A DNA stretch of 63,997 bases, filler included, from Perkinsus olseni (lineage: Eukaryota), in the NCBI GenBank assembly GCA_013115125.1. It is 18 parts of 18 records of this genome, joined end to end, with 100 filler letters (N's around TTAATTAATTAA, not from the genome) between each part and the next. Parts side by side here need not be neighbours in the genome. Positions count along the whole stretch, not along the records: positions 3,623 to 7,137 come from JABANN010001388.1; 17 more parts are not named here. One strand, written 5' to 3'. The notes below the pieces were generated by a model. That model was not told where the DNA came from. It ran no database searches and worked only from the letters and a program-made list of their open reading frames with translations. The position numbers and the translations under genes were made by a program. Numbering within the stretch: position 1 is the stretch's first letter; the number at the start of each line of letters is the position of its first letter. This document shows positions 3,623-7,137 of this stretch, piece after piece.

Positions 3623-4200
3623 ATACGGTCTTCATTGAGGTCACCAACCCCGCCAGCGAGCCTGTCCGCTTCTTATCAACTTCAGGTGCGTGGACGTTTA
3701 CACTGGCCCAACAGCACTACCACTCCAATCGACGGGAGCTTGCTGTAAAGCAGTCCAAGCAGCCGTTGATGTCATTGCCCATCTTGCATCATCATTGTCC
3801 GGAGACTTGCCCTCGCTTACCCTTACGGTGCGATCGGACAATCGCAGGGCCATGGCAGCATCTCTAGATCTTCTCTGGATCGACGCGCTGTCTTGAGAAC
3901 TCTTGATGCTCTGAAGGATGCGCTCGATTATCTGAAGACTTTAGGCTCGGGAGCGATACTGAATGAGCACATAGAGGGCAAAGCCAACATCATGCCTGAT
4001 ACGTTGTCGAGGCTTTTCGACCGAGAAGTGCCATTGCAGCCATAGTCAGGCGACGATGCTCTCCATGGTGGTTCCGACAACATCGCGGACTTTCCTGAGA
4101 TATTTCCTGAGCCACAGCAGGTCTCTCGGATCATGAGATCTGAGGGGGCGCAGCTGATAGGAGAAGATGCTCATGATGTCGACATCTACACCAGCAAACT
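3623..4200 (+). mobile_element. pol: Decayed Ty3/Gypsy pol fragment (RNase H region)
   Basis: LTVRSDNR, then a frameshift, then DRRAVLRTLDAL...HIEGKANIMPDTLSRLF (the RNase H C-terminal H..G..N..AD.LSR motif). It resembles the pol at 53722-55840. Confidence 0.75.
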
Positions 4201-4201
4201 T

Positions 4202-4256
4202 GAGTGAGCAAACATGAGTATAGTTAAATGTAGCTCCCCTCGCCCCCTCTCCAATG
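4202..4256 (+). repeat. 55-bp direct repeat, copy 1
   Basis: GAGTGAGCAAACATGAGTATAGTTAAATGTAGCTCCCCTCGCCCCCTCTCCAATG; 49/55 identical to 6804-6858. Confidence 0.9.
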
Positions 4257-4437
4257 TTCAAATCCTGCACTCCGCATAGTGCTAGCCTGATTCATGATAT
4301 AACATTGGAGGGGGGCTTGCGGCGAGCGCGCAATAGAGTCATACTTCTGCGATTGACTGCAGTAGGGAAAAGATTGGCGCTGACGCGCGCGAAACTCGTT
4401 TGCTGTCTCAGGTAGGGGACAGTCCAAGCAAAAGAAT

Positions 4438-5482
4438 GTGTACTCCATAACAGCATCGCAGAGAAAAGATATACTCAGTGACTGGCAGAGGGGTCTCTCT
4501 TCAAGAAAAATCGCTGCGAAAGTCGGCCGCAGCCAGTCACCAGTCGTCGAAATGGCCACAGCACAGATAGGCAACAGAGCGAGCACTATCCGGCAAAGCC
4601 GCTCGAGGTTGATCAATGCGCGGCAACGTCGCGGTATTATGAGGCAGTTTGCTTAGACTAGGACATCCCGACCTTTTTTAACCGCCAAAGCCTTCTTCGA
4701 GTCCCATGGGTATTTTTTTTCGTACGACACTTTCCTAAGGACAATCCACAGTGAGGGATGGCAGTGCATAAGGACGCCTAGAAGGTTCTTGCAGCGCAGA
4801 GGAGACCGCCAGAAGAGAATCAAATGGGCCAGATCAATAACACAAGCCTGCCTTGGACAGCCAAGTAGAATAGCAAATTTCTTTCGCAGAGGCGTTGGTA
4901 TGTACTTGGACGGTGTTACGATCGGGTTCGACGGTGGAAAGCCGGGCTGCTGCTAGAGAGAAATCCTGGGGTCACGCTGACCATACTCCATGCGCAGTGG
5001 GCTCTTGCTTCACGATGAGCAGGAAAATCAAGTTTGTCGGCGTCTTAGCATGGAAAGAGCGCCCAATAATAACTCTTATAGCAGACAACTCAGCAAGAGC
5101 GTACGAGAACTTCCTCGGCACTGTCGCCATACCCCTGCTGCGTAGAAGAGCGAAGCGGAATAAATCTAATCGAAAAAGAAAAATGTTAGATAACTACATT
5201 GCTCCAAGAACATCTTTATGCATGAGGGCCGTTGTGACTGGGGGCTGTCGATTTCTGAACTTCCCCCCACGAAGTCCAGACTTAACATATATCGAAACAC
5301 CGTTTGGGATATTGAAGAACAGGCTAAGGCTGGCAGTAACTTCAGAGAGTTTGTGCCCCACTGAACAGTCATTCATTGAAAAGGTTACACGTATATCCCC
5401 TGCTATTGATTGGTACCTCTTAATAGAGGGCATTAGTAAGCGTCTGCAGATGGTTTTGAAAAGCAGAGAAGATCTGGTCTGA
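4438..5482 (+). mobile_element. Tc1/IS630-family transposase pseudogene
   Basis: N-terminal HTH (GLSSRKIAAKVGRSQS), KRIKWAR, MLDNYIAPRTS (cf. QDNAP.H) and FPPRSPDLTYIE (cf. WPPxSPDLNPIE). It has an in-frame stop at 4654-4656 and a frameshift. Confidence 0.85.
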
Positions 5483-5490
5483 ATTAGGGT

Positions 5491-6641
5491 GTGCTTGGAC
5501 ATGTGAAGAGAATCCTTGATGAAATACATCGAATAATGGTTTTGCCGTCGCAATTCGCTCGATACTGGGCAATTTCCGCGCCGTACGCTCAACGATAAAG
5601 TAGCTACCTGAGCAGCTACAGTTATTCCACCAAAACTGACCCTGACTCATATTTGAGTGTTGGTCGTCCCTCCATAACACGCAAGCCATCATTATTGGAG
5701 TCGACAACCACCGACAATGAAGAAGAAACGGGACAGTCTTGCCGGATTTGAAAACTCAGCGATATTTCATCATGGATAGTGGCCAAAAAGCTGCGCACCG
5801 AGCGTGCGTTTTTGGCTGCTGCTCGCCAAGAGAAAAGGGTTAAAGAATACATTCTCAATCAGAAGGAGCCTGTAAAAAATCTCCTCGCTAGAGTCTGGGC
5901 CATGGAAAATGCCGCCCAAGAAGCTGCACTCGGCAATCAGAGTCGTTGAGACAAATTACACGAGGCTGCCCAGGCCGACTGCCTATGCAACGGAGTTACA
6001 CAAACAGCCCTGGTGGAAATTTTGTCCCGTAACGGTGTGCAGATCTCTCGCTTTTCTTCTGCCATCATTAATCTGCTCAAGGTTGGCCGAAGCCGAAATT
6101 AGAATCTGGCTATAGCTGGCTTATCGACTGTGCGAAGACGTATTCAGTAAGACATTTATCCAATATCAATCGTACTTGCTCTCTTTCTTCCGGTAGCTAT
6201 CGCCTGGCGATTCTCCTTGACAGAGAGGTTGAGCTGTTCATTTTCGATGATTTTCGCTACCACCTAAGACGAACCGGATTTGCTCTCTTTGATGCCCTGC
6301 CTTTCTTCGAAGGCAGAGAAGAAATTACGATTGCTCTACCCAAGAGTAGCACTAGGTGTGATGCTACTTATGAAAACAATGCACTCGTAATCATCACGGC
6401 GCCTGGAAGATTCAACTGTAAGGATTTGAGTCCAGATGATAACGAGATGCTCAACAAGAGCTTCTGCTCGCTCTACCTGACCAATCCCGTTAAAATACCC
6501 TGCCGTAAAGATTTCCCAGGATGTGGCGCCTGTTTCGCTAAAACGATACTTTCGAACAACACTCCCACTGATGCTCAGCTGTGTGTGATTCTTTTCGTCC
6601 GTTCGCATGATATATACCCAGTAGCTGAATATTACTACTAG
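5491..6641 (+). pseudogene. Rolling-circle Rep (HUH C-terminal part) plus SF3 helicase, parvovirus-NS1/CRESS-like, decayed
   Basis: Manual translation gives HVKRILDEIHRIMV..., YSYSTKTDPD (YxxK-like motif III), GRSRN*NLAIAGL/DCAKT (Walker A), LFIFDDFRY (Walker B), FFEG, VIITA (motif C-like), EMLNKSF and CGACFAK. Stops lie at 5596, 5749, 5947 and 6100, with one frameshift near 6125. Confidence 0.75.
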
Positions 6642-6803
6642 TACTACAATAGCTTGACCATGAGCGGTGTTTTGTTGCGTTTACTCACGTTGCCTTTGAG
6701 TACTCTTGCCGAGCCCCCTCAACTATCATGCCCGACAGAACGCGTTATACTTCAGCCATCTCCACCGCCCCAACTGCTGTCGAACGCAAAAGTGAGTCAG
6801 GAG

Positions 6804-6858
6804 GAGTGAGAAAACATGAGTATAGTAAAATGTAGTTTTCCTCGCCTCCTCTCCAATG
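6804..6858 (+). repeat. 55-bp direct repeat, copy 2
   Basis: GAGTGAGAAAACATGAGTATAGTAAAATGTAGTTTTCCTCGCCTCCTCTCCAATG, 2602 bp downstream of copy 1. Confidence 0.9.
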
Positions 6859-7072
6859 CGCCGCGCAAAAATAATTATTAGAAAACTCGCTAATTTTTGT
6901 CAGTTACCAGGTGTGCAGTGCATCATCCTCTGGGTCCTCCAGGTCTGTGGCCTTGAGTGTTAGCCCTCCTCATCGATAGATGTCACGAGCTGGAGGTAAC
7001 CCCGCCGGGGAAACCCTGGGCATTAATATCTACCCGTGGACATTCAGCCCTTTTGCCTTCTGGAGTGGAAAT

Positions 7073-7137
7073 GGGTTTTTGGCGAGTTGGTTAGGACAAC
7101 GGTTTTACACGTAAGTGGCATGAGTTCTAATCGCACT
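7073..7137 (+). pseudogene. Degenerate tRNA-like sequence (Val-UAC-like loop)
   Basis: A-box TGGCGAGTTGG, loop TTTACAC and B-box-like GAGTTCTAATC. The stems are broken and the sequence is cut by the contig end. Confidence 0.4.

Follow-up and report, generated by a model that had tools for sequence, protein, structure and literature searches.

The window analysed here, a stretch of 63,997 nucleotides from the Perkinsus olseni assembly GCA_013115125.1, contains the decayed remains of a gene for a rolling-circle-type Rep protein, predicted to have joined an HUH nuclease to a superfamily 3 (SF3) helicase, within a 2.66-kb unit that carries terminal direct repeats and a hairpin. The window is made up of about 18 small parts of some 3.5 kb each, in falling order of size, joined through N44-TTAATTAATTAA-N44 and with two N100 gaps besides. 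Adjacency across the TTAATTAATTAA linkers is without meaning, and the Rep remnant is confined to the part 3623-7137 (JABANN010001388.1), onto which contigs assembled from four public sequencing runs were aligned; the depths of these contigs vary from run to run and are not taken as copy numbers. In the following list, residue numbers are those of P0013, a P. olseni protein of 493 residues encoded on a 56-kb contig, which is the closest full-length relative, and conservation refers to a family alignment of 21 sequences (10 database proteins and 11 open reading frames, ORFs, of metagenome loci).

5602..6128, plus strand: Rep pseudogene, frame 1, corresponding to P0013 residues 169-343, from the end of the nuclease domain through the linker to the helical domain
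5623..5634, plus strand: HUH motif III, YSTK, equivalent to Y176-K179 of P0013, with the putative catalytic tyrosine; the sole remaining nuclease motif
5980..5994, plus strand: CLCNG, with the conserved CxC pair (C295 in 18/19 and C297 in 20/20 family members)
6126..6140, plus strand: remains of Walker A, DCAKT (GPSGCAKT in P0013), with a one-base frameshift just 5' of it
6129..6641, plus strand: Rep pseudogene, frame 3, with the SF3 helicase core and a C-terminal CxxC (residues 345-493 of P0013)
6234..6257, plus strand: Walker B, LFIFDDFR (D385 and R387 each in 19/20 family members)
6384..6404, plus strand: motif C strand, LVIITAP (T434 is T in 16/19 and S in 2), which aligns with the motif C strand of adeno-associated virus 2 (AAV2) Rep40
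6444..6464, plus strand: arginine-finger region, EMLNKSF; R455, kept in 18/18 family members, is replaced here
6522..6542, plus strand: C-terminal CxxC, CGACFAK (C476 in 18/19 and C479 in 19/19)

The gene is recovered by translated comparison (tblastn) with P0013, whose residues 169-343 align to 5602-6126 with 156 of 175 positions identical and whose residues 345-493 align to 6129-6575 with 126 of 149, giving a joint E-value of 5e-156 at 85-89% identity. Any homology at all is restricted to 5602-6575, the counterpart of residues 169-493. Frame 1, read from 5488, is interrupted by four stops (TAA 5596, TGA 5749, TGA 5947 and TAG 6100), and frame 3 is open from 6072 to 6641 (189 residues, with the stop at 6639-6641); the reading passes from one to the other at 6126/6129 by a one-base frame change inside the Walker A glycine codon. 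The three later stops sit opposite sense codons of P0013. Since the homology begins abruptly at 5602, neither the TAA at 5596 nor the 38 codons with which the frame starts belong to the gene, which thus holds three stops and one frameshift. In this regard, a first-pass annotation had described a read-through protein of about 380 residues with four stops and one frameshift: all of these lesions are present and the gene is real, whereas one stop and the first 38 codons do not belong to Rep. The motifs YSTK, DCAKT, LFIFDDFR, LVIITAP and CGACFAK to which that annotation pointed are all present, and its Walker A string, G..DCAKT, needs correction, as it spans the frameshift and intact relatives read GPSGCAKT or GPxNCGK[ST]. 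Its suggestion that HUH motifs I and II might be deleted is borne out by the lack of N-terminal homology: a frameshift-aware alignment of P0013 residues 91-168 to 5300-5601 reaches a score of 23, where shuffles average 24.2 and 65 of 100 do at least as well, and the N-terminal 168 residues are found nowhere else in the window with 11 homologues as tblastn queries, so this copy is a 5'-truncated pseudogene. Apparent motif II remains near 5488-5530, with an 'NFR' in another frame, were dropped when the frameshift-aware alignment proved no better than shuffles.

Further lesions affect residues that the family keeps, the invariant histidine of the 'HP' motif being lost and a serine standing where the arginine-finger arginine aligns. 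A contig of run X6 carries one extra base at the 6126/6129 site and so lacks the frameshift, which indicates that the Walker A lesion is recent and not common to all samples. Run X9, guessed to be RNA, gave a 93%-identical contig over 5605-5837 at a depth of 4.6, which has no bearing on expression either way. Judged by its sequence, then, 5602-6641 preserves, in a dead and now functionless state, the 3' two-thirds of a Rep gene.

The nature of the intact protein can be read from relatives. When the 189-residue frame-3 piece was compared with 1.84 billion representative proteins, eight matches were obtained at E<=0.001; a word-index search found one homologue and a profile search added three, and a word search for longer homologues gave none among 432 candidates. 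The source names of the nearest proteins are those of hypothetical proteins of P. olseni, P. marinus and P. chesapeaki, in agreement with the protist setting first proposed, the remaining ones coming unnamed from metagenomes or sequencing-run assemblies. The three Perkinsus species have intact paralogues of 41-66% identity, on contigs of 36-306 kb. Moreover, of 401 stretches picked out by a pattern in JGI metagenomes, 20 code for relatives (L001-L020), most of them lying on contigs of 1.6-3.9 kb; L014, L015 and L016 repeat one element and L019 and L020 another, which leaves 17 distinct elements. A tree built from the helicase half groups the six Perkinsus-type rows in a single clade (100/100) on a long stem, within which the window is sister to P0013 (100/99) with all of the difference on the window's branch.

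The alignment shows a consistent set of motifs. Motif I, YLITx, has T83 in all 18 members that cover it; motif II, HxH, has H135 and H137 each in 18/18, with F, Y, L or W as the middle residue in 17/18 (the exception, L011, has HDH); and motif III has Y176 in 19/19 and K179 in just 9/19. After a conserved HP pair (19/19) come a basic linker and a helical region followed by the CxC pair, and then the helicase: Walker A of the form GPxNCGK[ST] with K347 in 19/19, Walker B with its aspartate D385 followed by an almost invariant arginine, an LEG/P[KQ]N stretch, MMxxR with the arginine finger, and a C-terminal CxxCF. The four conserved cysteines may bind zinc. The helicase motifs, from Walker A to the arginine finger, stand in SF3 order and spacing, and a profile alignment pairs them with their counterparts in AAV2 Rep40 over 160 residues. 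Against the PDB, the C-domain profile finds AAV2 Rep40/Rep68 at E 2.6e-6, its 15 best matches all being parvovirus Rep/NS1 or papillomavirus E1, and the nine matches of the N-domain profile are all Rep nuclease domains (best E 0.0013). An AlphaFold2 model of P0013 (mean predicted local distance difference test score, pLDDT, 78.8; ordered parts 77-190 and 215-490) gave at least 75 Foldseek matches at E<=0.001, including AAV2 Rep68 (E 1.5e-11), E1 (1.3e-8), Rep40, SV40 LT, B19V NS1 and a vientovirus Rep, and its top 50 matches in BFVD are all viral replication proteins (Rep, NS1, E1, LT and others; best E 9.7e-15). The nuclease part of the model superimposes on the Rep of tomato yellow leaf curl virus (TYLCV) with a score of 12.9 and a root-mean-square deviation of 2.7 over 106 of 108 residues, and on that of wheat dwarf virus with a score of 12.6. 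As a lead, a language-model Atlas places the helicase half near Parvo_NS1/PPV_E1_C clusters and the nuclease half near Gemini_AL1/Viral_Rep clusters, and holds two cnidarian clusters of similar proteins.

Pfam, on the other hand, does not recognise the family at its own thresholds. Among 22 family proteins the cut-offs were missed by PPV_E1_C (24.1 vs 26.5), Parvo_NS1 (16.7 vs 20), RNA_helicase (14.6 vs 21.5), Gemini_AL1 (19.5 vs 24) and REP_ORF2-G2P (22.9 vs 27.8); these sub-threshold matches are nevertheless consistent, with REP_ORF2-G2P and Gemini_AL1 at the N-terminus and PPV_E1_C, Parvo_NS1 and RNA_helicase at the C-terminus. Pieces taken from the window itself have no SF3 or Rep match in Pfam at E<=1, so that the sequence alone would not have decided the matter, and the profile check proposed by the first-pass annotation (Parvo_NS1, Viral_Rep, RNA_helicase) fails on the window and succeeds by way of the intact relatives. 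Through their motif conservation, profiles and folds, these support the nuclease-plus-helicase architecture that had been suggested, and as the helicase is SF3 and not SF1, a Helitron is excluded. From alignment and models, both the HUH Rep-class nuclease fold and the SF3 helicase fold are predicted for the family, and the intact protein, of about 450-500 residues, would comprise a CRESS-type (circular Rep-encoding single-stranded) HUH nuclease with a single motif III tyrosine, a linker, a helical domain with the CxC, a parvovirus/papillomavirus-type SF3 helicase and a CxxC end. The window gene, by sequence, is a member of a Perkinsus-specific clade in a wider family associated with eukaryotes.

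Some members depart from this plan. L010, L011 and L013 form a clade (100/100) of longer Rep-like proteins, of 524-694 residues, with the Walker A variant GLxGNEGK. L011 bears a C-terminal SAM domain (E 4.2e-11) and an N-terminal DEK_C just under its cut-off (E 6.3e-5; 23.2 vs 24.8 bits), and L002 a DnaJ-like N-terminus, likewise just under (E 1.9e-5; 25.1 vs 27.8 bits). From their sequences, the three members of the clade look like host-fused or domesticated forms. In L009 the Rep frame is broken by about 360 nt (2125-2486), flanked by a 62-nt inverted repeat with arms at 2148-2209 and 2626-2687; this interruption may be an intron or a small insertion.

The Rep remnant is part of a larger unit, 4202-6858, whose features are as follows.

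4202..4256, plus strand: left 55-nt direct repeat, containing the C-rich arm of the hairpin and ending in CCAATG
4241..4324, no strand assigned: hairpin, with C-rich arm plus CCAATGTT, a loop of about 45-55 nt, and AACATTGG plus G-rich arm; overlaps the left repeat
6642-6803: 3' flank of the Rep remnant
6804..6858, plus strand: right 55-nt direct repeat, with a C-rich arm ending in CCAATG and without a G-rich partner behind it

The two direct repeats are 89% identical and spaced 2602 nt apart. The hairpin has a C-rich/G-rich outer stem and a CCAATGTT/AACATTGG inner stem, and folds as DNA at -29.7 kcal/mol (z -4.66), with none of 200 shuffles as stable; the region of the right repeat (6798-6940) folds at a z of -1.92 only. 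We infer that the hairpin is a putative origin or nick region. A contig from a second copy, about 90% identical and recovered in runs X1 and X6, matches 6515-6845 and then returns to 4243-4359. Through this join of 6845 to 4243, the second copy has the repeat and the full hairpin after its Rep 3' flank, an arrangement of the unit that is head-to-tail or circular. In addition, a contig of run X7 begins to match at exactly 4202, after 442 letters foreign to the stretch, so 4202 is probably the true end of the unit. Rfam finds no family in the window part or in seven metagenome loci, and a tandem-repeat search found none.

The same hairpin design, C-arm/CAATGTT/loop/AACATTG/G-arm, occurs next to Rep in L004, L009, L017 and L006. 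The hairpins fold at z -2.66 in L004, z -3.99 in L009, where the hairpin is present twice, and z -2.94 in L017; that of L006 has one mismatch and a non-significant fold. A strict form of the motif has 5 matches at 4 loci in 128 kb and none in 200 dinucleotide shuffles, and a relaxed form matches only L004, L006, L009, L017 and the window, with none in 60 shuffles. Within the 64-kb window the design is found in one place only, and the units of the window, L004 and L009 carry a single hairpin each. The Perkinsus and L004 Rep proteins are only about 24% identical, and the keeping of a cis-element over such a distance argues for a function of the hairpin. A 35-nt likeness between the spacers of L004 and L009 was set aside, as it is C-rich and partly of low complexity, and only the hairpin architecture was counted.

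Signs of redundancy at the ends of relatives agree with the junction seen in Perkinsus. L004 has a 157-nt terminal redundancy at 99.4% identity around a unit of 3687 nt, L017 a 234-nt terminal repeat that is direct as well as inverted, and the first 155 nt of L009 recur 6010 nt later, so that head-to-tail or circular forms recur in the family. Exact terminal overlaps were found in none of the 20 metagenome contigs, and near-exact ones, by BLAST, in L004 and L017. Other contig ends have their own peculiarities. L005 ends (3831-3901) in a perfect 34-bp palindrome that folds at -46.4 kcal/mol (z -12.3) and represents either a hairpin at the element's end or an error of assembly. Iterated repeats are found at the 3' end of L008 (CCCCACGTAAC, about six times), at both ends of L017 (about five GGTAACCAC-like copies, which fall within the 234-nt terminal repeat) and at the 3' end of L007 (GTCACCAATGC, three times, containing CCAATGCG, which is also present at the end of the right repeat of the window); these may be candidate binding sites of Rep.

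No capsid-like or VP-like ORF was found in the window unit or in the 20 metagenome loci. Of the ORFs in those loci other than Rep, 63 were listed, and Pfam gave no capsid family among 35, the rest being overlapping duplicates or transposase ORFs already scanned. Among the viral contigs of IMG/VR, two protein-pattern scans (33 stretches each) returned no relative and a hairpin-pattern scan returned nothing.

The place of the missing 5' part of the Rep gene is taken by a transposon, and repeats of other kinds flank the unit.

4360..5601, plus strand: Tc1/mariner-like piece, starting with CAGT and standing where the 5' part of Rep belongs; Rep homology resumes at 5602
4384..5482, plus strand: transposase pseudogene, with a helix-turn-helix (HTH) region and a DDE core (YLDG at 4903-4914, PPRSPDL at 5264-5284)
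3623-4193: retroelement-like repeat; many run contigs part from the window at 4193
6890-7137: another repeat family, which several contigs per run enter from differing upstream sequences

The transposase pseudogene is interrupted by an in-frame TAG (4654) and shifts frame once between 4874 and 4956. Both of its Pfam matches are below cut-off (HTH_38, E 0.0033, 17.5 vs 27 bits; DDE_3, E 0.0044, 17.3 vs 28.6), and it matches the transposase of L009 by tblastn at E 2.5e-7 (31% over 84 residues). CAGT are the usual first letters of Tc1-type ends. The second-copy contig leaves the window after 4359 and continues for 30 non-matching letters; since its match stops just where CAGT begins at 4360, the transposon piece looks copy-specific and seemingly replaced the 5' part of Rep. 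Run X1 gave no second contig over 4360-5601, a lack of cover that alone proves nothing, and no other Tc1-like copies were found within the window. A 14-nt inverted pair (4402-4415/5604-5616) lies near the borders of the piece; 2 of 200 shuffles reach its score, and it is maybe due to chance. In the left flank, the end motif of ORF 3770-4045 is presumably that of the C-terminal RNase H region of a long terminal repeat (LTR)/DIRS retroelement Pol; the ORF has no match in Pfam, and its region (3623-4193) is covered by many diverged contigs in all four runs.

Transposases of the same kind accompany some of the relatives. In 4 of the 17 distinct elements (L004, L009, L015/L016 and L019/L020) Rep is followed downstream by a Tc1-like transposase on the opposite strand, so that the two genes converge; these transposases are 37-44% identical to one another, and that of L004 passes the DDE_3 cut-off (52.3 bits, E 7.4e-14) and resembles SB100X (E 2.8e-9). 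In L009, 36-nt inverted arms of 97% identity enclose both Rep and transposase, and L004 has the arm core ATGATTGTCTG in common. In both of them the inverted arms frame the hairpin and resemble the ends of Tc1-type elements; the distance from the G-rich arm to a Tc1-like end is 22-55 nt in the window, L004 and L009. A search for inverted repeats flanking just the transposase gave nothing above shuffles in L004, L015, L016 and L019, and a poly-A match in L009; candidate inverted repeats of L016 (1078-1107/6680-6708) were too weak and were not used. L006 has the hairpin and Rep with no transposase on its 2.6-kb contig. Other transposases on these contigs are a Harbinger-type DDE_Tnp_4 (E 2.3e-17) upstream of Rep in L014/L015/L016 and a pogo-type DDE_1 (E 1.4e-9) at 1088-2092 of L013. 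The relatives of Rep thus sit in transposon-rich eukaryotic DNA. The units with Rep and transposase could be a composite element or reflect a Tc1 family that favours sites beside the hairpin, and caution is called for by the other transposons nearby, by L006, which is free of a transposase, and by a piece in the window that looks specific to its copy.

The explanation that we favour, with about an even chance of being correct, is that the window holds a dead copy of a capsid-less rolling-circle-type Rep element, which may in origin have been a virus, a transposon or an episome. The homology, folds, lesions, repeats, recurring hairpin and head-to-tail junction are direct observations; the origin role of the hairpin, nicking at that site and the absence of a capsid are what we infer. 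In the intact elements, Rep would bind the hairpin region, nick one strand there and keep hold of the 5' end by its motif III tyrosine, while its SF3 hexamer would unwind the DNA for copying by host polymerases. The output would be unit-length circles or head-to-tail arrays able to enter the chromosome, and no capsid would take part. In the present copy, the Tc1-like piece seems to have displaced the promoter and the first 168 codons, including motifs I and II, and three stops, the Walker A frameshift and the loss of the arginine finger complete the inactivation.

Several points weigh against this explanation. Both the circle and the nicking are hypothetical, and the junction contigs come from a diverged second copy and could represent a tandem duplication in the chromosome. 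The hairpin motif was defined after three cases, so that the independent later ones are L017 and L006 only, and the loops are long (40-65 nt), not conserved in sequence and with no conserved motif like that of CRESS origins. Novel capsid proteins would slip past the Pfam scan. Moreover, the hairpins of L004 and L009 lie between Tc1-like ends in units that contain a transposase, so mobility may rest on the DDE transposase and not on Rep, and the intact divergent paralogues in three Perkinsus species are also compatible with a host gene family.

These points lead to the alternatives. An encapsidated single-stranded DNA virus whose host was Perkinsus, its prey or the organism it lives in could have been integrated as an endogenous viral element, its capsid gene being lost, located on another segment or too novel to be seen. 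The uniformly viral top 50 structural matches in BFVD, with which the PDB is concordant, speak for such an origin, as does the likeness of a hairpin adjoining Rep to the origins of single-stranded DNA viruses, and integrated copies longer than unit length are known for geminivirus-related DNA. Rep-derived insertions in eukaryotes are many, according to the sections consulted of Liu et al. 2011 (PMC3198968). The absence of a capsid-like ORF from the window unit and from the 35 other ORFs, of a relative in the three IMG/VR scans and of exact terminal overlaps in the 20 contigs goes against it, as do the eukaryotic transposons that adjoin Rep on several contigs and the fusions of some members to SAM, DEK_C or DnaJ domains; together with the cis-elements and the head-to-tail junction, which lean to a capsid-less element over a virus, they make this origin unlikely in our view. 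Quite unlikely, as we see it, is that Rep is the passenger or helper of a Tc1/mariner system, in which the DDE transposase moves the unit and the 'hairpin' is simply two inverted terminal repeats set end to end. The convergent transposases in 4 of 17 elements, the decayed Tc1-like gene inside the window unit, the arms that enclose both genes in L009 and share ATGATTGTCTG with L004 in place of repeats round the transposase alone, and the Tc1-like ends near the G-rich arm would all be expected from it, and the portion of PMC3198968 on Tuber melanosporum offers a precedent, with a Rep-like ORF, transposase ORFs and 37-bp terminal inverted repeats. It fits poorly with a window piece that appears copy-specific and whose transposase is only weakly like the others, with L006, where hairpin and Rep occur without a transposase, and with the unrelated DDE_Tnp_4 and DDE_1 transposons at other loci, which suggest regions that are simply rich in transposons; nor would a mere passenger need the catalytic residues that Rep conserves family-wide.

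It could also be that Perkinsus retains genes derived from Rep in some cellular role and that the window holds a duplicated pseudogene of this domesticated family, which would agree with intact paralogues in three species, with their single well-supported clade on a long stem and with the SAM and DEK_C fusions of other lineages, suggestive of host use. The hairpin, direct repeats and head-to-tail junction are, however, features of a replicon and not of a host gene, and all nuclease and ATPase residues are retained in the family, so we hold domestication to be improbable. As for a Helitron, some other rolling-circle transposon of a known kind or a fortuitous series of motifs, the eukaryotic genome, the union of Rep and helicase in one protein and the hairpin near one end might bring it to mind, and its likelihood is practically negligible: the helicase is SF3 and not SF1B/Pif1, motif III has one tyrosine, an E-value of 5e-156 to an intact homologue removes chance, and Replitrons, as portrayed in the relevant part of PMC10288648, have no helicase. 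This reading is refuted by the fold and profile results. A bolder version of the capsid-less Rep element, possible and put forward only tentatively, is that the window preserves a relic from a lineage, so far undescribed, of eukaryotic replicons without a capsid, with units of 2-4 kb bearing one origin hairpin and one Rep (CRESS-type HUH plus parvovirus/papillomavirus-type SF3), multiplying as rolling circles or head-to-tail arrays, distributed from Perkinsus to (probably) cnidarians, with one branch allied to a Tc1-type transposase for integration, and placed between Cressdnaviricota and Cossaviricota.

The closest known systems include Rep68/Rep78 and NS1 of the Parvoviridae, with papillomavirus E1 as next neighbour, and the Rep of CRESS-DNA viruses (geminiviruses, vientoviruses, circoviruses and nanoviruses). 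Parvoviridae are marked by a linear genome that has hairpins at both ends and a VP capsid gene, CRESS-DNA viruses by a small circular genome with a capsid gene. By analogy, the family would work as the Rep of those viruses does, and differs from them in having no recognisable capsid and in missing the Pfam thresholds. Like the Replitrons, as these are described in the part of PMC10288648 that deals with them, it is a eukaryotic element with a one-tyrosine Rep, which in Replitrons is weakly linked to CRESS Reps, short direct repeats stand at or near the ends and spread is copy-and-paste; the Replitron transposase lacks the helicase domain, whereas this Rep family has a full SF3 helicase. With Helitrons it shares the eukaryotic rolling-circle setting, a Rep joined to a helicase and a hairpin near the end, but Helitrons have two tyrosines and an SF1B (Pif1-like) helicase, following the same source in the passages concerned, in contrast to one tyrosine and SF3 here. 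The geminivirus-like transposon of Tuber melanosporum, from the account of it in PMC3198968, resembles L009 and L004 in having a Rep-like ORF and transposase ORFs within inverted repeats, and the corresponding account of animals places repeats with Parvo_NS1 and PPV_E1_C domains in Hydra and other invertebrates. The Tuber element and the parvovirus-like repeats of lower animals, as far as that text describes them, belong to other hosts and another Rep lineage; the family may nonetheless be identical with one of those elements, for instance DENSOV_HM.

Rep-derived insertions in eukaryotes being already known, the dead copy in the window is ordinary in itself, and the interest lies in the family behind it, which is best filed among the elements of eukaryotic genomes derived from Rep-encoding single-stranded DNA replicons. 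The literature search found no account of such elements in Perkinsus, with the proviso that supplementary tables, which lay outside it, might list some of the proteins, and no paper that joins SF3 helicase, HUH, mariner and transposase in eukaryotes. The intact relatives define an apparently undescribed family of capsid-less rolling-circle-type elements. Capsid-less replicons in eukaryotes have so far been mainly the Replitrons, which have no helicase, the Helitrons, which have a different one, and a few algal plasmids. A hairpin that travels with the gene across very distant hosts, along with head-to-tail or circular contigs, points to a working capsid-less replicon, and the union of Rep with a Tc1-like transposase in units bounded by inverted repeats would be a rare combination of rolling-circle and cut-and-paste modes. 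The Rep itself combines a nuclease nearest to those of CRESS-DNA viruses with a helicase nearest to those of parvoviruses and papillomaviruses, which bears on the link between those two virus phyla. If the proposed lineage is real, it would offer a living example of the stage without a capsid from which the replication proteins of parvo-, papilloma- and polyomaviruses have been proposed to originate.

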